A stretch of DNA of 64,000 nt, from IMG/VR virus record IMGVR_UViG_3300020152_000023, positions 1,631 through 65,630 of that record. One strand, given 5' to 3'. The notes under the pieces are model-generated. The model was not told the origin of the DNA, did no database searches, and saw nothing but the letters and a program-made list of their open reading frames with translations. A program made the position numbers and the translations under genes. This document shows positions 19,398 to 43,773 of the stretch, in pieces. The stretch is from a virus (Duplodnaviria; Caudoviricetes). Position 1 is the first letter of the stretch. Every line of letters starts with the position of its first letter.

Positions 19398-19398
19398 G

Positions 19399-19719: not shown

Positions 19720-19779
19720 AATGCGTGCAGTTTAATATGTAAGCACCGATCCAGACACTCCAAAATCTTGCCATTTATC

Positions 19780-19812: not shown

Positions 19813-19837
19813 TCATAATCCTGCCACTATCTCGTTT

Positions 19838-21723: not shown

Positions 21724-21997
21724 TCTCGCGGCCCTTCACGGCGCGCGCGAAGAAGCGCGTGCCCTCCGGGAGCCCGCCGGCCGAGAACGACGACTCCATG
21801 TCCGTCGAGTTGCGGGCAATGGTCACATGGCCCTCATCGCCGGCCGGATCGGAATCGCCGGCCGCCGCGCCGTGAATGTGGACGACGCCCGTGGAGATCG
21901 CCTGAATCAGGACAAACGTTTGGCCATTCGTGAGCGGCTCCCAATCCGGGCCGATTTCAACGAAAGAAGTCATTCGAGTGACAACGGGCATGATCAA
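21701..21997 (-). CDS. Small putative virion/fibre-associated protein
   Basis: Coupled to the stop of the fibre gene; beta-rich composition. Confidence 0.6.
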   Translation of the reverse strand: MIMPVVTRMTSFVEIGPDWEPLTNGQTFVLIQAISTGVVHIHGAAAGDSDPAGDEGHVTIARNSTDMESSFSAGGLPEGTRFFARAVKGRETISVLAY

Positions 21998-24900
21998 CCT
22001 ACCTTTAGTCCGGAGCCGTATCTTAGGACGGGACCGCCGCCCACGGTTAGCGAAGAGTTGGCCGTGGAAGCACTCGGGGCGATAGCGCCCGGCCGCGCCG
22101 AACTCGCGCCGCTTCCGATGGGTAGATAGCCGACAAGATCAAGAGTGACTTCCACCGCTCCGACAGTGTACGTCGCTTCCATCGTCGCGAGATAGCCCGT
22201 CGCCGAGAGTGTGGCAACGTTGCGCGACTTGGCCTCGATCTCAATCACGGGAAGGAGCCCCATGCCGACGATTGTGGCCTCATTGGTCTGCGGGATGTCG
22301 ATCAAGCCTTCCATGGTGGGAAGCAAGCCGAGCGCCTCGATATCCACTTCATAGACCGCCTCGCCGCCGATCTCGGCCACGGGCAGATAGCCGGTGACAT
22401 CGGCCGTTGCGACATAGGCAAACGGCTCGGCCGCGATCTCGGCGAACGGCAACAGCCCGTTTAGGTCGATCTCCAGTTCCAGATTGAGGCCGACGCCGAT
22501 CAGCGCCACGGGCAGATAGCCTTCCATCTCAGCCGTGATGCGAGTCGGGAACTGGATCATGCCTTGAGTGAATGGCAGATACCCTTCCGCCGCGATCTCG
22601 GCCTCGGGCGAGAGCGCCATGGAGCCTTCCGCCGTCGGCAAGTATCCCTGTACGTCGGCCGTGATTTCGAACTGGAAGACAGGTGCATCGATCTCGGCCG
22701 TGGGCAGGAAGCCCATCGCTTCGATGTCCACGACGTAAACCGCCTCGCCGCCGATCTCGGCCACGGGCAAATAGCCGGTGAGATCGAGCGTGGCCCGAAC
22801 CGGGAACTCCGACATGATCTCGGCGGTGGGCAGATAGCCGTTGAATTCGAGCGTGGCCCGCGTCTGGATGCGGAACTCGCCTTCCATGAACGGCAAGAGG
22901 CCATCCGTCTCAATCGTCGCGACCGTCCGCATGCCACCGGCAATCTCGGCCGTCGGGAGATAGCCGTTCAAATCGCCTTCGAACTCGGACGGCGACGCCA
23001 CCGAGATCGCGGCCGTGGGCAGATAGCCGGCCAGTTCGGCGGTGACCGCCATGGGCATCTCGGCCACGATGTCGGCCGTGGGCAGATATCCTTCCCCCGG
23101 AACGGCCACGGTGGGCGGCGGCGGGTTGGTGCTCTTGTATGGATGGCCGGCCGGCAAGAGGCCGCGCAAGCCCCATTTCGCGGCTGCATAGCCTTCGAGC
23201 TTCTGGCGCTCGACATCCGTAATGCGGCGGCTGAAGATCAGGATGTCTTGCGCCGAACCGTTCCAGTAGACCGTAGCGTCGCGGAAGATATAGGCGTCCT
23301 GCGCCACCACGTTGTCGTAGGTGGCAACCTTGATCCAGTCGGCCTCACCGTTGACGTTGAGCTGCGAGCCGAAATATTCGTAGCCGCCGATCACGATGGC
23401 ATCTTTGTTCGTCCAAATCTCGTTGGACGAACTATTCGTGGCCCCCGAACCGCCGATGATGCCGACCTTTTCGAGGTTGTCTTTGGCGATACCGCGCCGA
23501 GCCGACGGCGCACCCCACTTGAAGAGCATGCGGTATGCGCCGGGGGCGTGATTGGCGTAATAGGCCACGCCCATCACGGTGTGATAATCATCATTGACGG
23601 GCAGGCCGGGGCCTACCGGATTGATCACAAGGTGATCGCCGGCTCCGTCCGCGATAACGGCCGGTTTGCCGCTGCGGCCTGTCATGGAATGCGTAGGCTG
23701 CGAGCCGCCCACCGCTTGCGTGGCGTTCCACGAGCCCCAGCGGGAAGCCCACATGGAAACGAGGCCGCTACCGTCTTTGGTGATCGTGGCCTCGGCCGCC
23801 GCATCAAACCAGCACAAAAGGCCCGGCACGTCGGCCGGCGTAAACAAGTCGATCCGGTTGGAACGGAGTCCGTTCAATGCCCGGAACTGAATCGTCTTGC
23901 CTTCCCACTCGGCCTTCATGGTGAGCGTCAGGCCGGTTTCCCCGACAAGCGGTTGCCCCCCGGCGTACCACTGGCCGAGATTGCCTTGATCGCGGGTATA
24001 GACCGAACCGGCGTAACCAGTACCGGAGGTGACTGAGATCGTGATGGGCTCGGAACCTACCGCGTCTATCAAGGCCTCGGCCGTAGGCAGGAGGCCCGTG
24101 GCTTCCACGTTGGCGTTGACGCCAACGCCTCCGGAGATCGCAGCCGTCGGAAGATAGCCGGCCGCGTCTACCGTGACAGCCGGGCCGGTGGGCGGATTGG
24201 TGCTCTTGTACTCGTGGCCGGCGGGGAGAAGCGCGCGCGTGCCCCACTTCGACGCCATATAGCCTTCGAGGCGCTTCCGGTCATCAAGGGACAACGCCGC
24301 GCTGTAGAAAAGAAGCTCTTGCACCGAGCCCGGCCAGTACCCGGAGTTGTTCGTAAACCGGAAGAGCTGGGCAATCGTCGGGACGGGCGTGTTGAGCGTG
24401 ATTGCCGCCGACGCCCCGGTGTATTGGCCGTCAATACGGGCGTCGAGATTGGTGGGGTTGAAGTTGCCCACCACGATCTTGTCGGCATCGAGCCACGTTG
24501 CACCGGCCGGGAAAGTGTGCGAGCCGGCCGATCCGAGCGAAATGCCCGCCCGGTTGGTGGAGTCTTGTTTTGAAATCTGGCGGGCCGTCGTAACGGTGGA
24601 CGTGCCATAGACGAAAACGCCCGTCCATGCACCCGAATTGGCATTCGGATGATACGCCATGGCCGCCATGCAGCTCGCGTTCGCCCCTTGCGGCAAGGCC
24701 GATGGCGTGTTGAGCGTCATAAAGAGCGACGTACCGTTGCCCGAGACGGCCGGCTTGCTGTTACGGCCGGTTGCCGACCATAGCGGCCGGTTGGCGTCCG
24801 TCGTCTGATTAAGCACCAAAGCCCCGACACTCGAAGCCCACGACGCGACCTTGTTGGAATTGAAGGTCATCAAGTCGTTTCGGGCCGCGTCGAATTGCGC

Positions 24901-25143
24901 GACCAATCCCGGAATCATCGACGGGACAAACACTCGAATGGGGTTGGATTTTTCGTCGGGGGAAGCCGTCCGGAAGGAGATCGCCTTGCCTTCGTTTTTG
25001 GCTTCCATCGTGTAGGTGTTGCCGGTCTGGCCGGCAATAGGGTCTTCGTCCGCATACCATTGGCCAGCGCCGGCCGCTCCGGTTTGCGTATAGATGGAAC
25101 CGAAGTAGCCCGTGCCCGAGGTGATCGAAATTGTGATAGCCAC
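21994..25143 (-). CDS. Fibre/adhesin protein: two duplicated Ig-like plus LamG/ConA-like modules and G[YLF]LPxxxI repeats
   Basis: Internal duplication (ITIS.TSGTGY.GS.YT; W/FDAA; EGY.A.KWG...LLPAGH.YKSTNPP, each twice); 18 GYLPTA-type repeats. Confidence 0.8.
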   Translation of the reverse strand: MAITISITSGTGYFGSIYTQTGAAGAGQWYADEDPIAGQTGNTYTMEAKNEGKAISFRTASPDEKSNPIRVFVPSMIPGLVAQFDAARNDLMTFNSNKVASWASSVGALVLNQTTDANRPLWSATGRNSKPAVSGNGTSLFMTLNTPSALPQGANASCMAAMAYHPNANSGAWTGVFVYGTSTVTTARQISKQDSTNRAGISLGSAGSHTFPAGATWLDADKIVVGNFNPTNLDARIDGQYTGASAAITLNTPVPTIAQLFRFTNNSGYWPGSVQELLFYSAALSLDDRKRLEGYMASKWGTRALLPAGHEYKSTNPPTGPAVTVDAAGYLPTAAISGGVGVNANVEATGLLPTAEALIDAVGSEPITISVTSGTGYAGSVYTRDQGNLGQWYAGGQPLVGETGLTLTMKAEWEGKTIQFRALNGLRSNRIDLFTPADVPGLLCWFDAAAEATITKDGSGLVSMWASRWGSWNATQAVGGSQPTHSMTGRSGKPAVIADGAGDHLVINPVGPGLPVNDDYHTVMGVAYYANHAPGAYRMLFKWGAPSARRGIAKDNLEKVGIIGGSGATNSSSNEIWTNKDAIVIGGYEYFGSQLNVNGEADWIKVATYDNVVAQDAYIFRDATVYWNGSAQDILIFSRRITDVERQKLEGYAAAKWGLRGLLPAGHPYKSTNPPPPTVAVPGEGYLPTADIVAEMPMAVTAELAGYLPTAAISVASPSEFEGDLNGYLPTAEIAGGMRTVATIETDGLLPFMEGEFRIQTRATLEFNGYLPTAEIMSEFPVRATLDLTGYLPVAEIGGEAVYVVDIEAMGFLPTAEIDAPVFQFEITADVQGYLPTAEGSMALSPEAEIAAEGYLPFTQGMIQFPTRITAEMEGYLPVALIGVGLNLELEIDLNGLLPFAEIAAEPFAYVATADVTGYLPVAEIGGEAVYEVDIEALGLLPTMEGLIDIPQTNEATIVGMGLLPVIEIEAKSRNVATLSATGYLATMEATYTVGAVEVTLDLVGYLPIGSGASSARPGAIAPSASTANSSLTVGGGPVLRYGSGLKVG

Positions 25144-25222
25144 GGCCGGCCCCTAGTTCGCTGGAAGGGAGCGGCCCGCCGCAACGCGGAAGCGGATGGC
25201 GGGCCGGCGTCGTATCGCGGCG

Positions 25223-25651
25223 TTACCAACCCTTGGGCTGAGTGTACGTAAAGCTCACGATAGACACTTCCACCGTGGCGACGATGGCCGTGGAGGTGAC
25301 TTTCATGTCGCCCGCGCCACCAGTGTCGGTCACGTCGCCATCGAACCACGGATTCCCGTCGCCGTCGAATGCTCGGAACCACGTCGCCGTGCCGGTCGCA
25401 GCCGCCGCCACCGGATCGATGTCTTCCGCCGTTGCCCGCGCGCCGCCGGTCACCGCCACCGCATCGCCGAAGGCCGGTTCGGGCAGAACGAAATCCACGA
25501 GCTTGACTTGCGTGGAGATGGCCACGCCGGGATTGGCCGGGCGCGTGCCGTCATAGATTTCGACGGAGCCTGCGCCCGCGCCGCTATCGAGCCCATCAAC
25601 GATGGCGTTGGCCGCAGCGATGGCGGCGTTGTCTGCGAATTTCAAAGCCAT
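25223..25651 (-). CDS. Small beta-rich virion structural protein (fibre subunit candidate)
   Basis: IYDGTRPA...L..F.L..PAFG...A.ATGTATWFR....G...DG.V...G.GD pattern seen in phage structural proteins; Ala/Gly/Thr rich; SD AGGAG. Confidence 0.7.
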   Translation of the reverse strand: MALKFADNAAIAAANAIVDGLDSGAGAGSVEIYDGTRPANPGVAISTQVKLVDFVLPEPAFGDAVAVTGGARATAEDIDPVAAAATGTATWFRAFDGDGNPWFDGDVTDTGGAGDMKVTSTAIVATVEVSIVSFTYTQPKGW

Positions 25652-25705
25652 GAGTGTCTCCTACGTTGGGCTCTTCGGTTCGATTCCGCTATATCCGAAA
25701 ATGCT

Positions 25706-28700
25706 TTACTGCGCTACTGACGCCACTCGGAAAGTCACCGAAACAACGCTGTAGGGAACATAACTAATATTCGTCAGCGTGTTCGGATCGTACGTACCCG
25801 GATAGCCGGGATTCGTAAGAGGGTCTGGCTCAATGATGATTTCGTCTTCATCGATCCAATCGACATCGGGCCATTCATGTTCGGGGAGAGTAGGCGGTTC
25901 TATCGGTTCGTCAAGCTCTTCTTCTTCGTCTTTCTCCCATTCGTCCTCACCTTCCTCTATAGTGGTAACCGTGTCGGGAGTTACAACCACGATCCCCTCG
26001 CAATCGTCCCGGAAGGCCACGGCGAGGATCACGCCCACATAATCCCAATCGATGGTGACCGGGTTGGGTGTGAGGACATTGCCCGGATCGTCATGAATGA
26101 AAAAGCTCATGGGCGGTGAACCGCCATGCGCTACCACCACGTCATTGCAGGCCGAGAAATCAGGAGGCCCGAACGACACAGGCTTGGTGTCTTGCGTATC
26201 GAACACATAGTTCACGCCGAACTCATGGAGCGTGATGACCGGATCGTTGGTGTCGAGGTGCTCGTGGGTAACGACAAACTCCGTTGAGAACGGCGAGAAC
26301 GCCATCAACGAATTGGTCATCTCGGCTTCCCAGACGTTGCCCCGGAATTCGAACTTGTCGAAAGAGATATCATAGATCAACCGACCTTGAACCGTGTCGC
26401 CCGGCGCGCCATCGGGGGCGATGACATGATAGGCCAGCACCTCTTCGTTCGGCGAGAACTGGAAATCCTTGATGATCGAATCTATCAAATGGATCGAATA
26501 GGACCGGAGATTGAACGTGTCGCCCGTCCGGTCGTACAGCTCAACGAACGCCGCCCGGAGGGTTTCCGTGTTGAGGTAGGCACTCGCCGAGTTCGGCCGC
26601 GTCGCTATCCCGATCCCGTTCGCCGTCTGATAGAGCACAATGCGTTCCGAGGCCGAGAGCTGATAGCCCCACAAATCCGTGATCGCATATTGAGGGGCGA
26701 ACCCGAGCGACGCGGGATATGTCGGGCTTGGCGAGAAACTTTCCGTGAAAGGATGGGATGCCCAATTTGACCCTCCGAAGTTGGCGATGGAATCGGTGTC
26801 GTTATAGCCGTCGGCCGGCTGCAATGCCGTGCCGGGGCCGGTGAACGTGTAGAGCGGCGAATAGCTCGGATACTCCACGAATTGGCTGTAGAGCCAATGA
26901 TTGAGATAGGAGCCGGTGTTCTGGAAAAACGTCAACGTTCCTTCAGTCCAGACGACGGCCGAGGACGACGCGGCCGCGCCAGTGTCGGACGGGATCGCGT
27001 AGGAAACCCAATCGGGGTTGTCCGCGTCGCCTTCATTGTGGAAGAGCCGGAGCCACTGGATCGCGGTATTGTTCTGCCAGACGACAGCCACCAGCTTTTC
27101 ATCCGGCGAGAGCTGGAGGTGGACGGGCGTTCCTGACATAGCCGGCGAGGGCGCTACGGTCTGGAAAAGCGAAAACGTGTTGGCCACGCTATCAAACTCG
27201 AAAACGTGCAAGAGGAAGCCGGAGCCGACATTGTTGCGCGTGATCATGAGAAGGAACGCGCCGTTGCCAGTCCACGTCGCCTTGCCCCACATTTGGTTAT
27301 AGCCCGACTGGTAGGGAAACGGGCTCGGCGCGATAGTCCACGTTCCCGAGATCAGCCGCACGAATTTCGGCGCAACACCCGAGCCGATGCCGCCATAGCC
27401 GTTGAAGACAAGAATGTCGTCTCGCGTCGGATGCCACAACGGAGCATGTTGCACGAGATTGGTGGCGTCGGTGTTGCTCATCGCGATATCCGCGCCCACC
27501 TGAGTCCATGCGCCCGTGCCGACGTTGCGCTGATAAATCCGGCACATGCCGGCGTTGGTTCCCGTCTGATTAAAGGTGAGGGCGCAGAACTGGCCGTCCC
27601 GCGAGATCGAGACACCCCGGCACGTCCCGGCCGGCACCGTGGGGGCCGTCGCCGAGGCCCACGCCGAGCCGTTCCAGTTGAATAGCGTGATCGCGTTCGC
27701 ACCTTGCTTGATCAACCAAAGGCCGTCGCGCGAGATGTCATAGCTGGCATTGTTGGTTGACCAGCCGGCCGGTGTCGTCGCGATAAACGAGCCGGTTACC
27801 GGATCGTAGGAATAGGTGGCGTTGGCGACGGCAATCCGATGGCCCGCAGCATCGCGCACGGGCTTTGGTGCGCCGCCGGTCAAAGCCGCGCCGGCCGTGA
27901 ACGGGGCCGCCGGGCCGGCCACCAAGACATCCGGGACAACGGAAATGCGCTCAAGGAACTCGGCTTTCGCCCCGCCGTCCGTATGCGTGTAGAAAGCCTG
28001 CGAGCCGTCGGCCTTGAACTTGATGTCGCTGACATCCCACGTCGTCGCGGTCGCATGGTTGCCGGTAGTGATCAACACCCAATTGCCGCCTTGTCGGGCG
28101 TAGAATTTGGGCATTCCCGTTCCCGAGGTGGCGCGGCCGTTGAGCGCCAGCACCGTCTCATCCGGGGAGTAATGCGCCTTGCGATCTGTCCCGGCCGATC
28201 CGGGCAAGGCGTAGGCCAGTGTGAATACACGACTACCTAGATCGAGATTATAGACATCCACGTCGCCGCCCGTATCGGCCACGATCCATTCCAGCTCATC
28301 GGATCGAACGGCGAGGAAAAGGCCGGCCGGGAGTGACGGCGGCGCGACAGGCGCATTGAGGTTCTGGATATCGAAGAGCTTGAATCCGAGGCCCGTCTTG
28401 ACGATGAGGAAATTATTGAGCGGGCTGATCTCCAGACCGAGGACGGCCGCGCCGATGGCGAGGGGGTCTACCAGTTCCCATTGCCCCTCGGGATCGTTCT
28501 CATCGCCGCCGCTCCACTGGTAGACTTGCACGTTTTGCGTATCGTTTTGCTTGACGGCATACATGAAGCGGCCGGCCTTCGAGAAGGCGGCATGCAGAAA
28601 GGATGTATTGGTGGGCCAGTCGGCATTCGGATAGGCGTTCGTTCGCGTGTAGACCGGGCCGGTGCGCTCGTAGAGCCGAGGCGGATTGGTTCCCGTGTTG

Positions 28701-28975
28701 CCAAACAAAATCCAGCGGTCGTTCCAGTGAATGACGCGGATGCCGTCGGTAGGCACGTTCTCCGTCGGGTTGCCGATTGCCGGCAATTCTTCGATCCGGA
28801 TGTCGGTGTGCATCGCGAGCTTGGTCAAGCTCCGGGCCGCCTTGAGCTTCTTCGGCGTCGCGGCGAGCTTCGGATAGAGCTTGAGCGGCGTGCCGGGCTC
28901 GCCGGGCATCGTCCGTTCCTTGAGCTTGAGAAACGGCGAATTGAATAGCGGTTCGGCGATGAGCGTGGCCGGCAT
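25706..28975 (-). CDS. Large tail-associated protein with beta-propeller (WD40-like) repeats
   Basis: Repeated FSKAG/ISPLN/YSPDE/ISRDG/LSPDE/FSPNE blade turns; tail module position. Confidence 0.7.
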   Translation of the reverse strand: MPATLIAEPLFNSPFLKLKERTMPGEPGTPLKLYPKLAATPKKLKAARSLTKLAMHTDIRIEELPAIGNPTENVPTDGIRVIHWNDRWILFGNTGTNPPRLYERTGPVYTRTNAYPNADWPTNTSFLHAAFSKAGRFMYAVKQNDTQNVQVYQWSGGDENDPEGQWELVDPLAIGAAVLGLEISPLNNFLIVKTGLGFKLFDIQNLNAPVAPPSLPAGLFLAVRSDELEWIVADTGGDVDVYNLDLGSRVFTLAYALPGSAGTDRKAHYSPDETVLALNGRATSGTGMPKFYARQGGNWVLITTGNHATATTWDVSDIKFKADGSQAFYTHTDGGAKAEFLERISVVPDVLVAGPAAPFTAGAALTGGAPKPVRDAAGHRIAVANATYSYDPVTGSFIATTPAGWSTNNASYDISRDGLWLIKQGANAITLFNWNGSAWASATAPTVPAGTCRGVSISRDGQFCALTFNQTGTNAGMCRIYQRNVGTGAWTQVGADIAMSNTDATNLVQHAPLWHPTRDDILVFNGYGGIGSGVAPKFVRLISGTWTIAPSPFPYQSGYNQMWGKATWTGNGAFLLMITRNNVGSGFLLHVFEFDSVANTFSLFQTVAPSPAMSGTPVHLQLSPDEKLVAVVWQNNTAIQWLRLFHNEGDADNPDWVSYAIPSDTGAAASSSAVVWTEGTLTFFQNTGSYLNHWLYSQFVEYPSYSPLYTFTGPGTALQPADGYNDTDSIANFGGSNWASHPFTESFSPSPTYPASLGFAPQYAITDLWGYQLSASERIVLYQTANGIGIATRPNSASAYLNTETLRAAFVELYDRTGDTFNLRSYSIHLIDSIIKDFQFSPNEEVLAYHVIAPDGAPGDTVQGRLIYDISFDKFEFRGNVWEAEMTNSLMAFSPFSTEFVVTHEHLDTNDPVITLHEFGVNYVFDTQDTKPVSFGPPDFSACNDVVVAHGGSPPMSFFIHDDPGNVLTPNPVTIDWDYVGVILAVAFRDDCEGIVVVTPDTVTTIEEGEDEWEKDEEEELDEPIEPPTLPEHEWPDVDWIDEDEIIIEPDPLTNPGYPGTYDPNTLTNISYVPYSVVSVTFRVASVAQ

Positions 28976-29769
28976 TACATGAGTTCCCCAACGATAGACA
29001 CGGTGACACCCTTATAGATTTTCCCGACGAACGGCGAGACGGGGGGCGCTCGAAGGGCGAGCACGTCGCCCGTGTTGAACTCGACCGGAAGGCCGCTGAT
29101 CGCCCGCACACCGCTCGAATGCTCCGACTGGTAGGCGTATCCGACTTGCACGCCATTCTTCAGGATGGCGAGCTGGCCGAACTGAGTCCAGCCGCGCACT
29201 CGGCCGCTGTAGCAGTCGGCATGTAGGCGGAACGGTTCCTTGACGGTGTGCGCGGCGACGATCCGATCAGCGCGCGTCTCGGAAATGAAGATCGAGATTT
29301 CGATCTCATCCACATATTCCTGAAACATCGCAAGGCCTTGCCAGCCACCATCCCCGCCGCCCGTCGGTTGATGGAAGCCGACCAATTGCCGATCTGCCAA
29401 TATGGGGATCATGACGCCGGGCCACGGCTTGAGGTTACGCCATGAGGGGAGGGAGGGCCATAGATGGTAAACCGAATGCAGCATCCTTATCTCAGTCGGT
29501 TCCACATTATGATCCGGCTCGATGAGAAAAATCCGATAATCGGGGGAGTACCAAGGATAGTTCGGCCCAAACCAACGATTCATCGCGTAGTCGGCCATCC
29601 ACCAATCGAACCACTCCATGGAGTTGTTCATGTCCTGATCCCACATTTGCTCGCCCTTGCGCCAGAACGCACGGATGATTCCGTCCATCCCGGCGAGCGG
29701 CCGTGAGTGATCCGGGTAGGCTACCGCGTTGAGCTGGTGATAGTCGCGATCCGGATAGTAGTAGGGCAT
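28975..29769 (-). CDS. Minor tail/fibre protein (probable paralogue of the upstream gene)
   Basis: Similar size and C-terminal beta domain (F..GDVL...AP....GVTVSI.G). Confidence 0.6.
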   Translation of the reverse strand: MPYYYPDRDYHQLNAVAYPDHSRPLAGMDGIIRAFWRKGEQMWDQDMNNSMEWFDWWMADYAMNRWFGPNYPWYSPDYRIFLIEPDHNVEPTEIRMLHSVYHLWPSLPSWRNLKPWPGVMIPILADRQLVGFHQPTGGGDGGWQGLAMFQEYVDEIEISIFISETRADRIVAAHTVKEPFRLHADCYSGRVRGWTQFGQLAILKNGVQVGYAYQSEHSSGVRAISGLPVEFNTGDVLALRAPPVSPFVGKIYKGVTVSIVGELM

Positions 29770-30509
29770 TAGTCAATGCTCCTGATTTTTCCGCAGATCG
29801 TAACGTTGAGCCCTTCCATGCCGTGGAGATTGGCCGGCGAACTCACCTGAAAGACATGCGCCTTTTCGTATTCGTTTTCCTCTACGGTGGGCAGGCAAAC
29901 CACTTCGTCGGGAATATTCACACTTCCATCCAACGAACCGGCGTCAAACGTAATCGAGCCCACCACTGGCCCGCGCGCCCGAATGGTGAAACTCACGGGT
30001 TGCGTCGGCGCGATTTCGCAATACGCCCCGGAGCCCGGCGCGCCGGCTTCGATCACCCACTCTTGCGTGGCGACGTAGGAAAACAACGTAGAATTGGGCC
30101 GGATGAGATACGGATTATACCAAGAGAATTCGCGAGGAATGGCCCGGTGAGTCTTGTTCGGATCGAACAAGAGTTGCCATTCGTTCATCTGGTTGTAGAA
30201 ATACCATTTGTCCTCATCGGCGACATACATTTTCAAGCCGAGGACAGTGGTGATTATATACCATTGCGCGGGGATAATATCATCCCCGTCATTGAACTCT
30301 TCCACCCACACATAGATATTTCCGTTGGACGGGTGGATATATACATCGTTCTCTTCGCCCGTGGCCGGCGGAACGGTAGTCTTGCTCAAGGCTGCGCCGT
30401 GGGTGACGACGGCCATGCGAATAAGATTCCAGTTCATGAGCGTGCCCCAATTATGGGAGCGCTTAGAAAACTGTCTGGCCGTGCCGGCCCGGCCAATATT
30501 CAGCACCAT
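29769..30509 (-). CDS. Minor tail/fibre protein, DUF2793-like
   Basis: WGTLMNWNL..., TVPP...ENDVYI, W......G...YVADE..WY.Y; start set to MVLNIG after SD GGAG. Confidence 0.65.
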   Translation of the reverse strand: MVLNIGRAGTARQFSKRSHNWGTLMNWNLIRMAVVTHGAALSKTTVPPATGEENDVYIHPSNGNIYVWVEEFNDGDDIIPAQWYIITTVLGLKMYVADEDKWYFYNQMNEWQLLFDPNKTHRAIPREFSWYNPYLIRPNSTLFSYVATQEWVIEAGAPGSGAYCEIAPTQPVSFTIRARGPVVGSITFDAGSLDGSVNIPDEVVCLPTVEENEYEKAHVFQVSSPANLHGMEGLNVTICGKIRSID

Positions 30510-30510
30510 G

Positions 30511-32988
30511 CTAATTCTCCACTTCGATAGAGGCCGTTGGCAGATATCCTTCCAAATCAACATCTTCGATTTGCGTCAAGATCGAGCCGTGCGGCCAGCC
30601 GCCCCAATAGTAATCCCAATCCGAACCGTAGCCCTTCATGTAGAGCTTGAGGTTGATCACCATGCCCTGAAGCGACGTGATCCCGTCTGGATAGTCAGGA
30701 TGGGGCCGACGCGAAATGAATTGGAAATTCATATCGGTGTACTGGAACGTCTTCTCCATGAGCTTGAGCGTGTAGGACGTGCCGGTCAATCCGACAACCC
30801 GGTCAATCTCGGTCCTTCCGAGCATGATGATAATCTCGGTTGTCTGGCCGTCTTCGGGCGGTACGTCCGCGTCGTTCCATGCAAGCCATGTCAGGTCTTC
30901 CGAGAACCGATTCCGGCGAGCCCATGTAAAATCGATCTCCCACTCGCGCGGCACATGTTCCAAGGCGAATATGTCATACTCGGCCTCCGGGTCGATTTTT
31001 TGACGTTGATCGGACGTGCCGAAGCGAACGCCTGCAATCTGGCAGTCGGCCGGCCGAAACGGCATATATGGCCGGTCTACTCGATTGGTTATCACTTCCT
31101 CGGTGAGCGCCGTATCGCCGGTAGACATCTTGAATTTGAACTTATAGCGCTCATCCTCGAAGGCGAACCGGCCGCTCCAGTCGTAGCCGTTGTAGTTGTT
31201 CGCATGGATGATGATGCGGGTGTTCGCCGGCCACTCCCACGGAATGGTATCGATCACGCCGCGCCGGATACGCCAGCGCGGGTTGCCGTCCTCATCGGGC
31301 TCCAGCTTCTCTTCGAAAACGAATAGCTCATCGGTGTGCTCATCCTCGCCGAGGAACATGCCGAGCCAACCCACCTTTGGCCAGTCTCCGGGACCAACAT
31401 AAGGGTCCATGGTGATGTTGGATCGGATCGCCTGTCCGATGCCTTCCACGAGCGCCGTATGGCCTTGCGTGCGCTTCTCGCCGAGAGATGTCCATACGGG
31501 CTCGCCGAGCGTGTTTACGCTGGGGCGATAGGGCTCGTAATATTGGAGGTCGAATTGCTCATCGGTGGGCAGGACATAGGTGTTGATCGCAATCGTCGGC
31601 CACTTGTCATCTGCCACCGAGAAAGGATCGTTGCCGATCTGCGGCGCGCGGCGATGGATGAGCGGGAGCGGCGTGGCCCGGAAGAGATATTCGATATCCT
31701 CGTAGATCGGATTATCCGGCTCGACAGGCGGTTCCCATTCGGTGTCGTCGGGCGGCACCCAAACGGCATAGGGGAAGCCGAACACGTCTTCGATGCAGTT
31801 GAACGTGACCTTGGCGTCACCAACCGAGCCCCAATCAACTTCCATGAGTCGGAAGATGACCTGAGACGCGCCGTAGAGCGGGTAGTTGAGAATGAAGACA
31901 TCGCCGGGCACATAGGGCCGGCCGGTCATCGGGTTGATTTGCTGGCGATTGATTTCGATGTCGGCCGTGGCGAGCGGCGAGGCGGCGAGTCGAAGTTCAC
32001 GCGCGCAAACATCGGTCGCCAGCGGCCGATTGCGAATGCCCCGGAGATCGCGCGTCTCCGACACCACGTCGCCCTGCATGGCGATGTTCGCCAAGTCTTG
32101 GAACGTGATGGACTCCTGCTCTTCGTTGAGCGGATTGGTGTAGTTGAGAACGATTTCGTTGGTCGTCTCACCCCACAACGGGCGGCGGAACGTCTTGACC
32201 TTGCACGTATCCGGCCCGATCTGGCCGAGTAGATCGCGCTCGTAATCCTTGCGGAGAAGCTTCAGGACAAGCTTGCCGGTGAAAGGGTTGAAGAAAAGCA
32301 AGCCGTTGATATGATTGAGAATTTCCTGAATGAAATCCTCGATCGGTGATGTTGCGGTCCATAGCAGGGAGAGCCCAAACTTTTCATCGTTGAGCCAATC
32401 GGCCGCGTAATTGAACGAGTCCACGTCGATCATGCCGGGGCGGCCGTTCATCATGTCCTTATGCACGAGGCATTCGTAGATGATATTGGCCGGGTTGCTA
32501 TCGTGCCAATTGCGGCCTTGATCGTCCTCGAAGACGATGACCTTGTGGTTATTGTCGAGCTGCTCGGATTTGCGCTGGAGGCGCATTTCGAAGTTAGGAA
32601 CTTGCGGGTTATTGCAGCTCACCGCGAAGCCCTTAGCCCCGCTATCGTCATTGCCGCAAAGGAAGAAAGACACGATCCCCCGGAAGCCGGGCATGCGATT
32701 GACCGGCCGGCCGCACCGCTTGGCGAGCGCTTCCGGCGCTTCCTGATCGCCGCCGCCGTTCATGAAATACATGTCGCCGACTAGACCGCCTTCCCGGAGG
32801 TGGCCGCCATAGAGATCGGGGCGATTGATCGATTCCTTGGCGCTCGTAAAGTGATTGAAATTGTCCTCGAAGACATGCTTGTCTTTGCACTTCGCGCCGC
32901 GCCATGCGTCCACCGGCCCCCGGCAATAGCTCAAGTGCATGGAGATATAATATTCGACGTATGGCGTGCCGGCCGGCTTTTTACCCAT
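30511..32988 (-). CDS. Tail tip/baseplate hub protein (Phage-tail_3 / GTA-like)
   Basis: YY.SMHL..C.GPVD, LYGG...EGG..G, NPANIIYECL, FI.EIL.HI.G.L, IRRG..DT.P..W; position after the BR0599-type gene. Confidence 0.85.
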   Translation of the reverse strand: MGKKPAGTPYVEYYISMHLSYCRGPVDAWRGAKCKDKHVFEDNFNHFTSAKESINRPDLYGGHLREGGLVGDMYFMNGGGDQEAPEALAKRCGRPVNRMPGFRGIVSFFLCGNDDSGAKGFAVSCNNPQVPNFEMRLQRKSEQLDNNHKVIVFEDDQGRNWHDSNPANIIYECLVHKDMMNGRPGMIDVDSFNYAADWLNDEKFGLSLLWTATSPIEDFIQEILNHINGLLFFNPFTGKLVLKLLRKDYERDLLGQIGPDTCKVKTFRRPLWGETTNEIVLNYTNPLNEEQESITFQDLANIAMQGDVVSETRDLRGIRNRPLATDVCARELRLAASPLATADIEINRQQINPMTGRPYVPGDVFILNYPLYGASQVIFRLMEVDWGSVGDAKVTFNCIEDVFGFPYAVWVPPDDTEWEPPVEPDNPIYEDIEYLFRATPLPLIHRRAPQIGNDPFSVADDKWPTIAINTYVLPTDEQFDLQYYEPYRPSVNTLGEPVWTSLGEKRTQGHTALVEGIGQAIRSNITMDPYVGPGDWPKVGWLGMFLGEDEHTDELFVFEEKLEPDEDGNPRWRIRRGVIDTIPWEWPANTRIIIHANNYNGYDWSGRFAFEDERYKFKFKMSTGDTALTEEVITNRVDRPYMPFRPADCQIAGVRFGTSDQRQKIDPEAEYDIFALEHVPREWEIDFTWARRNRFSEDLTWLAWNDADVPPEDGQTTEIIIMLGRTEIDRVVGLTGTSYTLKLMEKTFQYTDMNFQFISRRPHPDYPDGITSLQGMVINLKLYMKGYGSDWDYYWGGWPHGSILTQIEDVDLEGYLPTASIEVEN

Positions 32989-33411: not shown

Positions 33412-33417
33412 GAGCGG

Positions 33418-38500: not shown

Positions 38501-40540
38501 CGAGCTGGATACCTCGCCTTTCTTCGTCAGCTCCAGAAGCTCTTCGGTCGTGATGCCGAGGCCATCAGCCATAATTTGCAATGCACCTGGGAGCCTATCC
38601 CCAAGTTGTCCTGTGAGCTCTTCTAGTTGTACTTTTCCTTTACTCGCGATTTGCGTGAGTGCCTTGAAAATACCCGACATATCGGCCATTGACAGGCCGT
38701 TGACGCGCCCGGCCTCGGCCACCCGTAGGAAGACATCACGGGTCTTCTGCCCGGCAAGCACGGTTCCTTTGGTTGCAGCGGAGAACTTAGTGTACTCATC
38801 GGCGAGTTCGCCAATATCGATCCCGAGCCGGTCGGCCGTCCGGGAGATGAATTCGAATTCCGCGCCGGCCTTTGCGGTGTCGCCCGAATAGAGCGCCGTG
38901 AGACGGATTTGCGCCCGCTCAACCTTTTGCGTGGCCTCAACCACGCGCTGGAGCATGGTGATAACACCGAAGATGCCACCATATGCCGATACGAGCGACA
39001 GCACCTCGCCCCGGAGGCGTTGGGTGTAGGAGAGGGCTTGCCGGCTCTCACCGTAGATCTGGCGATAGGCGTTTGCGAGCGCACTGGACCGCTGCGCCGC
39101 TTGCCCCATAGCCGCCGCAGTTTGGCCCGTCGCGCGGGCGAGTCGCTCTTCGTTGACGACGGCTTGCCCGGTCGATTGCGATAGGCGGCTCATCGTGCCG
39201 GCGGCTTGGGCCGACTCCGCGCGTACACGGCCGAGTGCTGCGGCCGCTTGGCTTGTCGTCTGGCCGAAACGTGTCGTCACGGCTATGAGCTGATCGGTGT
39301 CACCCGTAAGGCCTTGCACGGCCGCCTGCATTTCCTTGTAGGCGGAACGTTGCTGGCCGAACTCGGCTTCTACTTCATTGAGGGATTGCCGCAGCCGGTT
39401 ATACGCCGCGACCATCTCGCCCGAAGCCGACAGGCCAGCGCCCCGCATGGCGGCGTTGACTTGCGCCAGCTCCGTTCGGATTTTCTGGTACTCTTGGCTG
39501 ATCTGTGAAACGACGCCGCGTTGCGCGGCAACGGCTTGCGCCAGCGGCCCACGCGCGGCCGCCGCGAGCTGCGCCATGTTGGCCGAAACTTTATCCGTCG
39601 CCGCGCCGAGGGTTTCGAGGCCTTGTTCCGCGCCCTTTAGCTGGCCTTCCTGCCGTTTGACCGCTGCGCCGGCTTTGGTCGCGCTTTGCTCCAGCTCGCG
39701 TTGTGTCGCCGCCGCTTCTTTGATGTTGCTCTTGTAATCCGCGATTTGTTGCGACGTAGCCGCAATCGCAGCCTCTTGCGTCTTGATGCCGGCGGCCGAG
39801 GCCTCGATCTTCGCACCGAACTCAGCCGCAGCGGCCGAGGCTTGCTCCATCTCGGCGACAGCGCTTTCGAGCCGGTCCCGATATTCGGCGAGGGTGGCCG
39901 TTTGTTTCTCCAGCCGCGTGCCGAGATTGGCGAACCGTTCCTGAAGCGTTGCGCTCGGCTTTTCAGCGGCCGCGATCTTCTGGCCGAGCGCCTCGTATTT
40001 GGCGGCCGTCTCGGTGACCTTGGCTTGCTGATCGAAGATATCCCGAGTGAGATTCGGGATAGACCGGGTGAGCTTTTTAATCTCGGCGTCGGCTTTTTTG
40101 AGGCCGTCGGCATACTTCGCTTGCGCGGTCGTCGCCTTGCCGAGGTCCGCTGCCTGATCAGTGAGTTGCTTTTCCGCGCCGGCAAGCGCGGCCTTGAGCC
40201 GGTCGGTTTCGGTAGCCGCTTCCGTGGCGCGCTTCGAATAATCCGTGAGATCGCCTTGGGCCTGCTCAAGGCCGGAGCGCAGCGCTTCAACCGCCCGGTT
40301 GGCCTTGTTGAGATCGTCGGCCAGCTTGTCGGCCGAGTTGCCGCCCTTGAGGGCCTTGCCGAGATCGGCGACAGCGCTAACGAGGCCGCCGATTCCCGTG
40401 CTTGTCTTTTTGGCGTTGGCCGTAAGGTCGGCCTGCGCGTCCACCATACTGTTGATGGCGTCGGTGATCGCGTCGAGAACCCGTACCGCGTCGTCTTTGG
40501 CCTTTACGATAAGATCGACTTCGCGGCGCGCGTTGGCCAT
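35507..40540 (-). CDS. Tape measure protein with embedded lysozyme-like domain
   Basis: 1677 aa, Ala-rich helical; ALTQIASKGKVQLEEL.GQLGDRLPGA tape-measure motif; GH24-like segment at about 36725-37150. Confidence 0.93.
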   Translation of the reverse strand: MANARREVDLIVKAKDDAVRVLDAITDAINSMVDAQADLTANAKKTSTGIGGLVSAVADLGKALKGGNSADKLADDLNKANRAVEALRSGLEQAQGDLTDYSKRATEAATETDRLKAALAGAEKQLTDQAADLGKATTAQAKYADGLKKADAEIKKLTRSIPNLTRDIFDQQAKVTETAAKYEALGQKIAAAEKPSATLQERFANLGTRLEKQTATLAEYRDRLESAVAEMEQASAAAAEFGAKIEASAAGIKTQEAAIAATSQQIADYKSNIKEAAATQRELEQSATKAGAAVKRQEGQLKGAEQGLETLGAATDKVSANMAQLAAAARGPLAQAVAAQRGVVSQISQEYQKIRTELAQVNAAMRGAGLSASGEMVAAYNRLRQSLNEVEAEFGQQRSAYKEMQAAVQGLTGDTDQLIAVTTRFGQTTSQAAAALGRVRAESAQAAGTMSRLSQSTGQAVVNEERLARATGQTAAAMGQAAQRSSALANAYRQIYGESRQALSYTQRLRGEVLSLVSAYGGIFGVITMLQRVVEATQKVERAQIRLTALYSGDTAKAGAEFEFISRTADRLGIDIGELADEYTKFSAATKGTVLAGQKTRDVFLRVAEAGRVNGLSMADMSGIFKALTQIASKGKVQLEELTGQLGDRLPGALQIMADGLGITTEELLELTKKGEVSSSALANFADNLAERYGEALPAALKTTSAEIGRFENALTRALLAFGQGGFIDGFNSLLRSLTATLRDADFLAFAQNVSAAFGLLAKTIGVLVENFKVLIAIVGTFVGIRLLPAITSLGLAFTNFGRAMNQAQIQAAIFRRESAALGATVGTTAGRVSALSVAAQGLRGGLAGLAVGAVVGLLTQWLTSAGEVNEAMTEHQRIMGLVKGAYDQNQQSVEAWRKSLAELSTQELTNNLQRVKSAAETARINALSGFEEGAATDMGDPAVRAINQSMVDLTNAVFDGKKSLEEYRNELDALQQAAAKLGPNGSGLADAIQGAHDLSEETFNAAKAVKEAADALDVKSSKAEVAEAAMKRLTGATDASGRSVESMAAGSKTFNSALDEMKSLIPEVNKGLDVMQQKANLDAAFQSAVRAAQTISELNGAIKQYNETASALFANAAGADLKGITDGVEAAATILRAREGFIPYAKMDVNALRTGFGSDTTTDENNVVRKVTESTRVTVADANRDLYRRIGEFNNVIVGQIGDKFGQFSAAQQGVLTSIAYNYGELPQSLANVINANGTPEEIAAAIRELQTDNKGINRDRRLYEAAAFESGTDVDAETKAYLNTQKELTKEKEKQAEAAKKFHDEQLQSNEALAQENALSKEDLVTRETAKAIREAENKAKEAGTTLTEQERAAIIENTRLKYQEQAAQDAVNASKKTAEEAESKFNAIAQQRAALLKQADALRAQGNTAGANAAVQQANALKTSMDQAAAAAIAMWQKIGGPEAQAAIEKIRQANLESQNLKTTGNQVSQMWTAVGESLMNNLSTAIDEFAQAVANGENAWKALGRALQKAAAQFLIDIGKMIIKQMLFNALSGIFPGLTNPLGAGVAHSGTGSGTLASNPSNRTRNVDPRVFAMAPRFHRGYQSGLGSNEVATILDKTESVQTKDSPFHPQNQARTMAAAAAAGAGGGKQDIKVLNLIDSAAILEEALNSPAGTKVFINKMRKEKASVKEVMK

Positions 40541-40542
40541 GG

Positions 40543-41279: not shown

Positions 41280-41317
41280 TACGCGGAACTCCTGTCAGGT
41301 TGGGTAGGCCGTCGGTA

Positions 41318-42109
41318 TTAGACCGTGAAGAGCGGTTCATCGTCCACATAGACGGCTTCGAGATTGCCGAGCTTCTGGATATCCAGCGTGAACGGGATCG
41401 TCTGCCACTCATCGCCCTTCAGCGCATAGTCGCCGTTGGGAGTGAGCTTGACGAACGGCATGAAGTAGTCCTGCTGCCCGCCCTTGGGGTTGAACGAAAT
41501 GTACTTTACGGCGCCTTCGACCGGCTGCGATCCGGAGATGATCCGGTTTTTGGTCGAAGCCTTCACGGTGTAGGTGACTTCCACGTCCGAACCGGCCGCA
41601 ATCGTGCCGGTGGAGAGGATTTTGATCATGCCCGTACGAGCATAGACCTTGTAGTCCACGTCCACGACATGGGTGGTGGCTCCCACCGCTACCGTGATGG
41701 CCGCTTCGTCAAGGCCACCGAGGCCGAGCGGATTGGAAGGCGTGACGCCGAGCTGATAAGATGCGTCGAGAACAACATCGGTCAGCGTCTCTTCAACCGC
41801 CGCAGCGGCGGCCGTCGTAACGACGTTGACCGTGCCGAAGTAGAAGAGCGCGATGTTGTGGACCTTGATGTTGTCGGTAGTGAACGAGCCGGTGCGGTTC
41901 ACTTGCAACGTCATGGAGTCATCCTTCTCGCGGATGCCATGGTCCGAGTCGTAGTGATCGAGCATTTCGATCTCGACCGAGATGTTGATTTCCGGCGTGT
42001 TGCCGAAATAGATGTAATCCTTGGGGGTCCGCGTTCCGGGAAGGAACCGCGCGAAATGGAATTCACCGCGACCAAGGGTGTAATTCTGGTTGTCTTTCTG
42101 AAGGGCCAT
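41318..42109 (-). CDS. Major tail tube protein
   Basis: NYTLGRG...F, Y.GNTPE, LDHY.SD.G.R.KD, NP.G...DY..P.V.L.P.GD.ALKGDEW. Confidence 0.9.
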   Translation of the reverse strand: MALQKDNQNYTLGRGEFHFARFLPGTRTPKDYIYFGNTPEINISVEIEMLDHYDSDHGIREKDDSMTLQVNRTGSFTTDNIKVHNIALFYFGTVNVVTTAAAAAVEETLTDVVLDASYQLGVTPSNPLGLGGLDEAAITVAVGATTHVVDVDYKVYARTGMIKILSTGTIAAGSDVEVTYTVKASTKNRIISGSQPVEGAVKYISFNPKGGQQDYFMPFVKLTPNGDYALKGDEWQTIPFTLDIQKLGNLEAVYVDDEPLFTV

Positions 42110-42126
42110 TACTGCGGTTCCTTATG

Positions 42127-42696
42127 TTAGTTTCCGGCATCGTAGGGATCGGTGAGAGTCTCTGCGATTGTCAAACTGATCGGTAGCCAAAAGAACGCCT
42201 TGGCCGAAATTTCATCCGGTGGACGAACAACGCCCACCCCGATCTTCAAGGCGGTGATGCACCGGAAGCCGAAGATACCACCGCCGGGGCTGAAGTCCAA
42301 CGCCTTCACCTTTTCTTGGGCGAGTCGTTTAACGACATCCGCTAACAGATATTGTGCTGGGTCGGTAGGGTCTTCCGGATCATCATCCACAAAGCCTTGC
42401 ACCATCAAATCCCAATCACCCACCCGATGCGGGTTGTCTGGCGCACGGTCGGGGATTTGGTCTGGCGGCAACACGATCTCCAGCAACGATGTCATGGGCA
42501 GGGGGTCGTCCTCGCCGAACATCACGCGGCCCCGGAAGTTACGGCGTTGCATGACAACCGTGCCGTCATTCTTGGTTCGCTCGAAAGGCCGGAGATCGAA
42601 GTTCCATCCGTCGGCGTTCCCGCTGATCTCATCAAACGCGGCCGTGATCCTCTTGAGGATCGCAAGCCGGAAAGGATCACCGTTCGGATACGCCAT
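42127..42696 (-). CDS. Tail terminator (gpU-like)
   Basis: FRGR..FG..DPLP, VQGFV.DD...PTDPA..L.ADV..RL, VRPPDE.S..AFF. Confidence 0.8.
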   Translation of the reverse strand: MAYPNGDPFRLAILKRITAAFDEISGNADGWNFDLRPFERTKNDGTVVMQRRNFRGRVMFGEDDPLPMTSLLEIVLPPDQIPDRAPDNPHRVGDWDLMVQGFVDDDPEDPTDPAQYLLADVVKRLAQEKVKALDFSPGGGIFGFRCITALKIGVGVVRPPDEISAKAFFWLPISLTIAETLTDPYDAGN

Positions 42697-43331
42697 TACA
42701 GATCAAGCTCCATGAGCCGCAAGAATTCATTCTGAAGAAAGTCGAGCATATCAGGAGTCATCTCTGAGGCAACACCCTCGCCGGCCCGACTTCCCGTGGC
42801 ATTGATGAATAGCTGATCTACGGACGGGCCGTAAAGCAAGTATAGCCCTTGATCGAGCTGCACGAGATGGCGCTTGTTTCGAATGCGCTGGCCCTTGCCG
42901 AGGCGAATGGCGAGGCCGAGATTGAATTGTGTATCGACCGGGCCGCGACCTTGGGGGAGCTTTACGAGGAAGGCACGCGGAAGCTTTCGGGCCGGCTTGT
43001 CCTGATTGACCTTTACCGTCACGCCGACGTTATCGGCCTCGCGCGACGTGATGTACCGGGCGAGAGAAGTCGGCCGGCCGCGCGCACGGATGATCGACTC
43101 CATGTTCCCGCGCGTGGCCTTCGAGGCGACATAGAGGCGCTTGGCGGCGGGATTGAGATAATGGGCCGGGAGGTTGATATCCCCGAGGATGAGATCGGCA
43201 CCGCGCTTCCTAAACCGTGCCGTGGTGGCGTTGACGGCGCGCACGATGTTGAGTTTCGTCGCACTTGACATATCGGCAACGTCGCCTAGCCCTTCGAGGC
43301 CTTCAACATATACCGCCCATCGGTCAACCAC
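42696..43331 (-). CDS. Tail completion/neck protein (gpZ-like)
   Basis: I.ARGRPTSLARY, AF...L, LYLLYGPSVDQ.F. Confidence 0.8.
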   Translation of the reverse strand: MVDRWAVYVEGLEGLGDVADMSSATKLNIVRAVNATTARFRKRGADLILGDINLPAHYLNPAAKRLYVASKATRGNMESIIRARGRPTSLARYITSREADNVGVTVKVNQDKPARKLPRAFLVKLPQGRGPVDTQFNLGLAIRLGKGQRIRNKRHLVQLDQGLYLLYGPSVDQLFINATGSRAGEGVASEMTPDMLDFLQNEFLRLMELDL

Positions 43332-43773
43332 TGTCTACCTCAATGGCGGCCGTGGGCAAGAGTCCCCATGCAGCCGAGTACACGACAGCCTCGGGTGGGC
43401 TCTTATACAGCGCTTGTTCCTTTGGCCCTAGCCGGGCAACGTTGGCGGCTTGCGTGATGTTGTAGACCGGCTCCACGTTATCCACGCGCCAGACATCTCC
43501 GGGCGCTATGGCGACGACATCGCCGCGCTCCGGGGTGTGCTGCTCTACCAGAAAGATGATTTGCGACTTGCGGGTGTCGTTCCGCTCGGCATAGACCAAG
43601 CTCGTGCCCTTGACGTCGCCGAGTGCGCCCCATTCGGTCAAGGATCGCACATATACGAGCTTGATCGGGCCGGCCGCATTCCCGGACATATAAAGGTACG
43701 CCGCGTCCTGCAATCCTTCATGCAAGTCGCGGCGTGCCTGTAGCTTCGCTTCTCGGTGATGAGTAAGCATCAA
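43324..43773 (-). CDS. Head-tail joining/closure protein (gpFII-like) with C-terminal GLLPTAAI motif
   Basis: K..ARRDLH; P.RG.VV.......WRVDN..P; position after the capsid genes. Confidence 0.7.
   Translation of the reverse strand: MMLTHHREAKLQARRDLHEGLQDAAYLYMSGNAAGPIKLVYVRSLTEWGALGDVKGTSLVYAERNDTRKSQIIFLVEQHTPERGDVVAIAPGDVWRVDNVEPVYNITQAANVARLGPKEQALYKSPPEAVVYSAAWGLLPTAAIEVDSG

Follow-up and report, generated by a model that had tools for sequence, protein, structure and literature searches.

Rope-and-bead fibres, in which small protein dimers are held along an extended chain, have so far been recognised only from cryo-electron microscopy maps of a few phages (GP4, VP1, A1002 and Bas63). 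A 64,000-nucleotide stretch of a tailed-phage genome (Duplodnaviria; Caudoviricetes; IMG/VR record IMGVR_UViG_3300020152_000023, positions 1,631 to 65,630; this whole stretch is called the window) encodes a fibre protein with a tandem array of units of about 21 amino acids (aa), and the same unit ends both the tail-tip protein and the head-closure protein of the phage. Comparison with the published systems suggests that the array is a rope, that a neighbouring 142-aa protein supplies the beads, and that the terminal units bring beads to the neck and the tail tip.

In the Pseudomonas podophage A1002, a chain-like fibre is formed by the nozzle-rope protein gp39 with dimers of gp40 and gp41 (PDB 44NX and 44NY). 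The fibre dimers of gp40, which has 147 residues, and gp41 are modelled in 44NX, and each of the 11 dimers forms an augmented β-sheet with the rope. By our own arithmetic, the fibre-dock domain of about 268 aa provides about 24 aa per dimer. The myophage Bas63 carries a related arrangement at its neck, where a rope extension of the collar protein holds two whisker dimers "like beads on a string". The Bas63 rope passes through grooves in the whisker monomers and completes their incomplete sandwiches, and its authors liken it to the separately encoded rope of GP4, which holds five dimers. A further set of small dimers is known from myophage baseplates. The 141-aa gp014 of phage 7-7-1, contained in the "tail fibers" model PDB 9RKV, is described as a garland protein, with 36 homodimers placed round the distal baseplate and bound to the lower parts of the fibres. 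According to the Milano paper, garland proteins share the connector-dimer fold of T4 gp8 and A511 gp105. The A511 connector dimers follow one another along an extended chain that crosses each of them, again "like beads on a string"; the "string" of the garland was unknown to the Milano authors.

The fibre protein of the window is laid out as two cassettes, each comprising a small β domain and a lectin-like module. After the first cassette come 2 units; after the second, 16 units and a Gly-rich tail. An earlier note on this DNA had counted 18 motif copies in the fibre, 16 in tandem and 2 between the modules, and these counts are borne out: G[YLF]L[PA][TVFI] occurs 18 times in the open reading frame (ORF) at 21994-25143(-). 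The ORF coordinates in that note are also correct, with all genes concerned on the minus strand; a plus-strand reading of the same coordinates has no open frames and was rejected. The 16 tandem motifs span residues 685-1005 at successive spacings of 21, 21, 21, 21, 21, 21, 22, 21, 21, 21, 22, 21, 23, 21 and 22 aa, and one of them has GYLA instead of GYLP. A 19th G[YLF]LP in the fibre (GLLPAGHPYKST, nt 23163) was rejected as a unit, being part of the end of the second module.

The unit follows the pattern xφxφxφx-G[YLF]LP[TVF]AEI. Upstream of the glycine, the profile of the 18 units is hydrophobic at −6, −4 and −2, with Glu, Thr and Asp/Glu at −7, −5 and −3, in line with the alternating hydrophobic and polar flanks described in the earlier note. 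The core consists of an invariant G, then Y/L/F, an invariant L, P (17/18), T/V/F, A, E and I. Six related phage genomes were compared, labelled G000 (the genome of the window) to G005, and all six arrays show a sharp autocorrelation peak at lag 21. The repeat is kept at the peptide level and not as DNA. Tandem Repeats Finder detects no DNA-level repeat in the array and codons vary between units, on which grounds a DNA repeat or recombination site was rejected as an explanation.

Beyond the fibre, the unit is confined to two other virion proteins. A hidden Markov model (HMM) built from the 18 fibre units alone was searched against the 1269 stop-to-stop ORFs of the 65,630-bp genome and retrieves only two more, the tail tip at E=1.6e-5 and, at E=0.0064, the head-closure protein; no further ORF scores better than E=1.5. 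This search confirms the claim that both proteins end in the fibre motif. One reading frame contains 20 instances of G[YLF]LP, the remaining five 0-3 apiece. C-terminal segments of 60 aa, 1310 in all, were scored across the six genomes, and the eight that score highest belong to fibres, tips and head-closure proteins of G000-G002; the tip of the window reaches 23.6 bits and the best unrelated ORF 3.2 bits. Both terminal copies are complete units, an alternating strand followed by the core, and the head-closure protein ends ...AVVYSAAWGLLPTAAIEVDSG*.

Assignment of the 149-aa protein as a head-closure (stopper) protein is based on a modelled stopper fold and on gene position, both of which were found. 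Foldseek matches its core to the necks of phage Chi (8vhx_F, E=1.5e-4) and λ (8k37_M, E=4.2e-4), and more weakly to the R4C stopper, the T1 stopper, the SPP1 connector and a gene transfer agent (GTA). As expected for stoppers, the gene lies between capsid-side genes and the tail-completion and terminator genes. The monomer model has a mean predicted local distance difference test (pLDDT) score of 65, with core blocks at 71-84 and the tail below 50, which fits a peptide that folds on a partner. The PHROG profile of this protein stops near residue 115, so the unit sits on an appendage. Conservation of this appendage is high: a unit lies near the C-terminus in 11/11 sequences (that of the window and 10 homologues), as GxLP in 10/11 and GFLA in 1/11, and its G, L and P are invariant or nearly so. 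Extra copies occur in 5/11. These homologues (P0007, P0008, P0009, P0013 and P0016) have longer tails with two or three unit-like copies and are 164-176 aa long or, where truncated, 126 aa. With one to three units among the homologues, copy number at the neck varies between close relatives.

The tail-tip protein is GTA g15-like by its sequence matches, which combine a Phage-tail_3 domain with DUF2460 and BR0599 neighbours; the genes upstream match PF09356 and, below its cut-off, PF09343. Among 19 tip homologues, a strict GxLP tail is present in 9, a one-residue variant in 5 and no unit in 5. Strict tails come after a conserved ...GYGSDWxYxWGGWP core, and the five unit-free homologues include the three most distant. 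The next gene, taken as its longest ORF (29769-30563, with an ATG start at 30563), overlaps the last 53 nt of the tip gene (30511-30563), which encode most of the terminal unit. In G001 the counterpart ORFs overlap by about 20 nt (tip to 32780; next-gene match from 32761).

The 142-aa protein encoded beside the fibre gene is, by sequence, a homologue of the 7-7-1 garland protein and of A1002 gp40. A single-sequence search matches PDB 9RKV at E=1.2e-21, and a 57-sequence family profile matches 9rkv_A at E=2.4e-29 and, over the full length, the 147-aa chain 44nx_B at E=5.4e-15. The same profile reaches no Bas63 or GP4 chain at E<=10, so kinship with the Bas63 and GP4 beads is indirect, by way of the fold similarity given in the A1002 paper. 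The unit period of 21-23 aa compares with about 24 aa of rope per dimer in A1002, as computed from the ranges in that paper.

Complex prediction for the 142-aa protein with a C-terminal peptide, a check of the kind suggested in the earlier note, comes out in favour of binding for the head-closure tail. The job comprised two copies of the 142-aa protein and residues 100-148 of the head-closure protein as the scored partner, with family alignments for both. Three runs score 0.87, 0.86 and 0.87, vs 0.10 for the best of 3 controls. The mark stated for the prediction tool is reached by 58/80 solved complexes and 2/110 mismatched pairs. At least 91% of contacts recur between runs, and pLDDT is 63-64 for the partner and 95-96 for the bead copies. 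Both copies contact the partner, and the score covers the partner interface, not the dimer interface.

On the partner, the confident predicted interface consists of head-closure residues 125-148, which are the unit. Residues just before and at the invariant glycine are predicted to contact residues 135-139 of one bead copy, and the LPTAAIEV strand residues 131-138 and 116-117 of the other. The unit is thereby placed on the C-terminal strands (about 127-141) of both copies. In this model one unit bridges one bead dimer, as in the solved relatives.

Relatives of the phage allow tails, arrays and beads to be compared. Alignment of the tip led to 160 loci, many of them duplicates. Among non-window contigs, unit-ending tips are found in only G001 and G002, both of which have array fibres and the 142-aa gene. 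Arrays in relatives were located by a motif-free period scan, an LLP-specific detector having missed divergent arrays; a whole-fibre protein search of G001 returned nothing, though a diverged array is present there. In G003-G005 (tip identity 39-41%), propeller-headed fibres carry 21-aa arrays with different cores (φxLPxφ, LS[YF]PAL and [TS][FL]P[AT]F). Their tips have no unit, and their head-closure tails carry motifs of the local type.

Tails were compared with arrays as z-scores against shuffled tails; the G002 contig (L008) ends before the head-closure gene, and no G002 head-closure tail enters the comparison. The head-closure tail of G000 scores 5.5 with its own array, 6.6 with that of G002 and <1 with all others. 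With their own arrays, those of G001 and G003 score 4.4 and 2.8, the latter the best in its row. Tip tails score 10.5 (G000) and 5.2 (G002) with their own arrays; the G001 tip tail scores 2.0 with its own array and 4.1-4.2 with LLP-type arrays, and those of G003-G005 give nothing significant. In these sequence comparisons, tails track the fibre motif by genome group and not strictly genome by genome; strict own-genome co-variation was rejected, as it holds at group level only. G001 encodes three bead paralogues and has two unit classes, 13 units of GP[FY]AD type and one of LLP type. Its head-closure and tip tails best match the single LLP-type unit of the rope. The bead contact strand reads ...SFT[YF]TQPKG[WY] in LLP-class genomes and ...S[FL]TxTMP... 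in the other class, and one G001 paralogue retains the LLP-class strand. These contact-strand classes are only consistent with co-diversification, since they also fit phylogeny.

We consider it probable that the array is a rope, that dimers of the 142-aa protein are its beads, and that the terminal units recruit beads to the neck and the tip. Support comes from motif statistics, conservation, bead homology, the fit of the period and the predicted interface. The phage, a siphophage whose tail tip is GTA-like, would then possess rope-and-bead ("chain-like") fibres. Each 21-aa unit, made up of an amphipathic strand and, after it, the core G-[YLF]-L-P-x-A-E-I, would dock one homodimer of the 142-aa protein; the two strands of the unit would complete the β-sheets of the two bead monomers, the first strand in one and the second in the other. 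The fibre would be a rope with 16 tandem sites and 2 more between its lectin-like heads, holding up to 18 dimers per chain, and its variable N-terminal modules would serve as receptor-binding heads. The stopper and the tail tip would each have acquired one complete unit as a flexible C-terminal appendage, so that each stopper and tip subunit recruits one bead dimer, to the neck and the tail tip respectively. Actual bead binding and stoichiometry are what we infer; binding itself is predicted here from a model. By analogy with proposals in print for GP4 Fiber-1 and the Bas63 whiskers, the beads probably act in weak multivalent adhesion to the host surface.

The proposal in the earlier note that each unit is clamped by the 142-aa protein, with filament length set by repeat number, is largely upheld by bead homology and one complex prediction. 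Its statement that no such arrangement had been described falls, since fibres of rope and dimers have been published for GP4, VP1 and A1002 and for the neck of Bas63. The evidence fits recruitment of a separate bead dimer by each terminal copy better than the anchoring or nucleation of the filament envisaged in the earlier note.

Several observations weigh against the rope-and-bead explanation. No homology is detectable between the rope of the window and that of A1002. The complex prediction covers the head-closure tail only. Its use of our own alignments and two copies differs from the calibration of the tool, and the pass may come partly from model memory, similar complexes (GP4, Bas63, A1002 and 7-7-1) being solved. 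Bead homologues adjoin tips without a detected array at three loci (L016, L033 and L096), and occur in Milano and 7-7-1, where no array is found. In the z-score comparison, the G004 head-closure tail scores only 1.4 with its own array, and that of G005 scores 2.8 with its own vs 5.8 with the G004 array. Co-occurrence in the six genomes does not count as independent evidence, since all belong to a single clade. The half-period (lag-10/11) signal is weak, where two similar half-sites would predict one, and two similar half-sites per unit were rejected for that reason.

The strongest structural evidence on the other side comes from an AlphaFold2 model of fibre residues 671-1049 (24-row alignment). 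The fold is all-β, each unit contributing two strands (mean pLDDT 77, predicted template modelling score 0.71), and its top structural match is curli CsgA (8c50_A, Z=33.2, rmsd 8.3, 322 aligned), other β-helices reaching Z<=24.0. The earlier note had named a self-contained solenoid fold of the repeats as a finding that would count against docking. The monomer model has such a fold, which keeps alive the explanation that the array folds by itself into a shaft, a two-sheet β-solenoid like that of curli in which every unit forms one strand-turn-strand rung. Units at the neck and tip would dock as extra rungs at the open end, like CsgB nucleating CsgA, and the 142-aa protein would bind elsewhere. 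In curli one repeat is one β-arch, and subunits are joined by β-augmentation and nucleated by CsgB; the terminal units of G001 do resemble the last rung of the array. The array nevertheless has neither a Pfam curlin repeat nor the N-x-Ψ-x-Ψ-x-Q motif, its unit consensus has no flanking N/Q, and Foldseek with the array model returns nothing at E<=0.001. A solenoid also leaves unexplained the bead gene in 6/6 genomes, the three G001 paralogues and the predicted placement of a unit on the bead dimer (0.87 vs 0.10), and a monomer fold of a partner-binding repeat may collapse on itself. On the missing curlin motif and Pfam match, the unexplained bead genes, the unit placed on the bead and the possible self-collapse, this explanation is ranked lower, and we regard it as unlikely. 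The likeness to curli is probably a property of the isolated-chain model only.

Anchoring, as the earlier note had it, could instead be the task of the beads themselves, acting as bivalent connectors: a dimer would hold a rope unit with one face and a neck or tip unit with the other face, tying the fibre to the virion. Dimers of the T4 gp8 and A511 gp105 type are described as connectors between baseplate and fibre network, and no other rope anchor has been identified. Bivalent binding is nonetheless quite unlikely: one complete unit is predicted to take up both monomers, so that a dimer would have no equivalent site to spare, the ropes of Bas63 and A1002 are likewise described as passing through both monomers, and the conserved Gly-rich tail of the rope offers an alternative anchor.

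A third explanation confines the terminal units to their own oligomers, with neighbouring stopper tails or the three tip subunits zipping together and the likeness to the fibre due to shared ancestry or recombination only. Stopper rings and tip trimers are oligomeric in other phages, and some head-closure homologues have 2-3 units that could self-stack. Self-association requires no tracking of the fibre motif, yet the tails follow the motif class of their genome group; the head-closure tail is predicted with confidence on the bead dimer, and there is no DNA-level repeat to hint at recent conversion. We hold this explanation to be very improbable.

If the rope-and-bead explanation holds, it can be taken further, though we do so tentatively and with more doubt than conviction. 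The 21-aa unit may be a portable address tag, by which any virion protein with one copy gains a bead dimer, and unit classes and bead paralogues may co-diversify into orthogonal tag-bead pairs that amount to a docking code. The clade would then use a single small adhesin in three places, the neck, the tail tip and 18 sites along a rope with lectin-like heads. One G001 paralogue would serve the LLP-type tags (neck, tip and last rope unit), and the others the 13 GP[FY]AD-type units.

The putative docking site has a sequence-level signature, a 21-aa period with an amphipathic strand and a Pro-containing core, and such putative sites can occur as single appendages on unrelated virion proteins, here a stopper and a tail tip. 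Should binding prove true, the genomes of uncultured phages could reveal bead sites and bead copy number, the system would stand as a naturally occurring case of virion decoration directed by peptide tags, and G001 would be a test case for orthogonal tag-bead pairs. Should the address-tag idea prove true as well, the missing "string" of garlands such as that of Milano could be identified.

A sensitive search of 1.84 billion representatives returned 29 array relatives only, and those examined carry 21-aa arrays under lectin-like, WD40-like propeller, right-handed β-helix or BNR-like N-terminal domains. In P0047 (1399 aa), LTGYAPTV-type 21-aa arrays flank a right-handed β-helix domain (PF13229, E=3e-12), and in P0050 (428 aa) the array lies mid-protein and is followed by a different C-terminal domain; arrays are therefore not always C-terminal and can flank an enzyme-like domain. 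Pfam has no family for the fibre or for the array alone. The fibre of the window reaches no curated Pfam threshold for a LamG/ConA-like match, its relative P0046 matches Laminin_G_3 at 22.1 bits, below the 27.6 cut-off, and PHROGs 10356 and 11772, which match the fibre modules, carry no lectin annotation. Searched against the PDB, the whole fibre finds nothing, and the array profile finds WD40 matches only, through its N-terminal columns, and no rope. An ESM Atlas search with the array returns only unnamed viral clusters (score 0.90, low recognition).

Other periodic signals were met at the loci compared. At L107, a 1080-aa ORF downstream of a distant tip homologue (17326-20565, +) has a strong period-20 repeat (score 37) and may be another rope type. 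A period of 21 (score 29) is also seen at six loci (L073, L117, L119, L121, L128 and L133; about 1.2-5.0 kb) in ORFs of 1070-1258 aa, which lie upstream of distant tip homologues and by their location may encode tape-measure proteins. In G004, at about 57.9-59.1 kb (loci L176-L177), both strands have overlapping ORFs with a period of 18-19 aa and scores up to 77, probably a DNA tandem repeat outside the structural module.

The genes concerned lie in one minus-strand structural module (Table 1). It starts with the major capsid protein (44484-45533), a 215-aa ORF and the 149-aa head-closure protein, and continues with Neck1/tail completion (phrog_27), the tail terminator (phrog_5078), the major tail protein and the tape measure (1677 aa). 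There follow DUF2460-like and BR0599 proteins, the 825-aa tail tip, two 264-aa ORFs and the 1089-aa protein, and the module ends with the 142-aa protein, the 1049-aa fibre, the 98-aa ORF and an amidase endolysin. The cassette order of large protein, bead, rope and 98-aa protein is found in 6/6 genomes examined whole. G001-G005 have an additional ORF of 486-562 aa between the bead and rope genes (e.g. G001 39012-40478), which is absent from the genome of the window.

Table 1. Positions of the fibre, bead, tail-tip and head-closure features in the window
Feature	Position	Strand	Evidence or remark
98-aa protein directly downstream of the rope gene	21701..21997	(-)	homologue adjoins rope in 6/6 genomes
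Fibre ("rope") protein, 1049 aa	21994..25143	(-)	PHROG 10356 + 11772 on modules
Gly-rich C-terminal tail of rope (...TVGGGPVLRYGSGLKVG*)	21997..22068	(-)	conserved in most family members examined
Main array, 16 tandem putative docking units of 21-23 aa	22096..23118	(-)	residues about 676-1016
Two isolated units between lectin-like modules	24061..24186	(-)	G at residues 329 and 350
142-aa putative bead protein	25223..25651	(-)	phrog_3758; homologue of 7-7-1 gp014 and A1002 gp40
1089-aa protein upstream of the bead gene, first cassette member	25706..28975	(-)	PF10282; 47% identity to G001
Tail-tip protein, 825 aa, GTA g15-like, Phage-tail_3	30511..32988	(-)	PF13550 23.6 bits (cut-off 23); phrog_1101 E=4.9e-140
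Terminal unit of tail tip, residues 805-825 (...IEDVDLEGYLPTASIEVEN*)	30514..30576	(-)	fibre-unit HMM E=1.6e-5
Head-closure (stopper) protein, 149 aa	43324..43773	(-)	PHROG, fold match, gene order
Terminal unit of head-closure protein, residues 127-149 (...PEAVVYSAAWGLLPTAAIEVDSG)	43327..43395	(-)	fibre-unit HMM E=0.0064

The Gly-rich tail of the rope, with pLDDT <50 in the monomer model, is a candidate anchor, and the 98-aa protein, which has no Pfam or PHROG match, is another candidate in rope anchoring. The 1089-aa protein matches a 7-bladed β-propeller family (Lactonase, PF10282) at 24.6 bits vs a cut-off of 21.7 and is possibly a receptor-binding or baseplate-peripheral protein. The major capsid protein has its nearest counterpart among deposited phages in Synechococcus virus S-ESS1 (64% identity over 89%), ahead of those of Achromobacter and Rhizobium phages (46-50%). 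The only tRNA in the window is a tRNA-Gln with anticodon TTG at 4884-4960 (+).

Set beside the known systems, the locus recalls curli in one respect. The curli repeat of Pontibacter korlensis R15.5 (PDB 8C50), about 20 aa long, forms one rung, and the idea of a repeat shared between nucleator and subunit applies; unlike curli, the array of the window has no curlin motif, Pfam match or secretion context. The literature searched holds nothing on curli-like bacteriophage tail fibres. The bead-chain neck fibre of A-1(L) was considered and rejected as a parallel, its trimers joined head to tail being a different architecture.

The garlands of 7-7-1 (gp014) and Milano (gp125/gp127) are the closest sequence relatives of the beads and are likewise small virion homodimers encoded beside a fibre gene. 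Unlike the beads proposed here, these Agrobacterium-phage dimers ring the distal tailspike or fibre ends of a myophage baseplate. Milano gp126 and 7-7-1 gp013, the bead-neighbour genes, were considered as repeat-bearing strings and rejected, no repeat array being seen in either. For the head-closure tail, the closest parallel is that of Bas63 and GP4, in which a neck-associated protein bears a short rope that holds dimers. There the Bas63 rope is an N-terminal extension of a dedicated immunoglobulin-like collar protein on the connector, whereas here it is the C-terminal tail of the stopper itself.

A1002 shares with the window a homologous bead, many tandem dimers on an extended rope and a similar number of residues per dimer, and its two kinds of bead on one rope parallel the three paralogues and two unit classes of G001. 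The ropes differ in that the A1002 rope is a domain of a podophage nozzle protein with 11 dimers, whereas that of the window is a separate siphophage protein with lectin-like heads and 16+2 sites. The parts of the A1002 paper drawn on here mention no docking unit on a stopper or tail tip, and the literature searched, as far as its accessible parts go, gives no account of one. In its components, the locus has the small bead protein (by homology), the rope of tandem sites (in the array) and the strand augmentation (in prediction only) of a rope-and-bead fibre. The system is probably a variant of that fibre, set in a siphophage, with putative receptor-binding heads on the rope and single units on the stopper and tip. 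It would carry the rope-and-bead architecture over to siphophages and to ropes with receptor-binding heads of their own.

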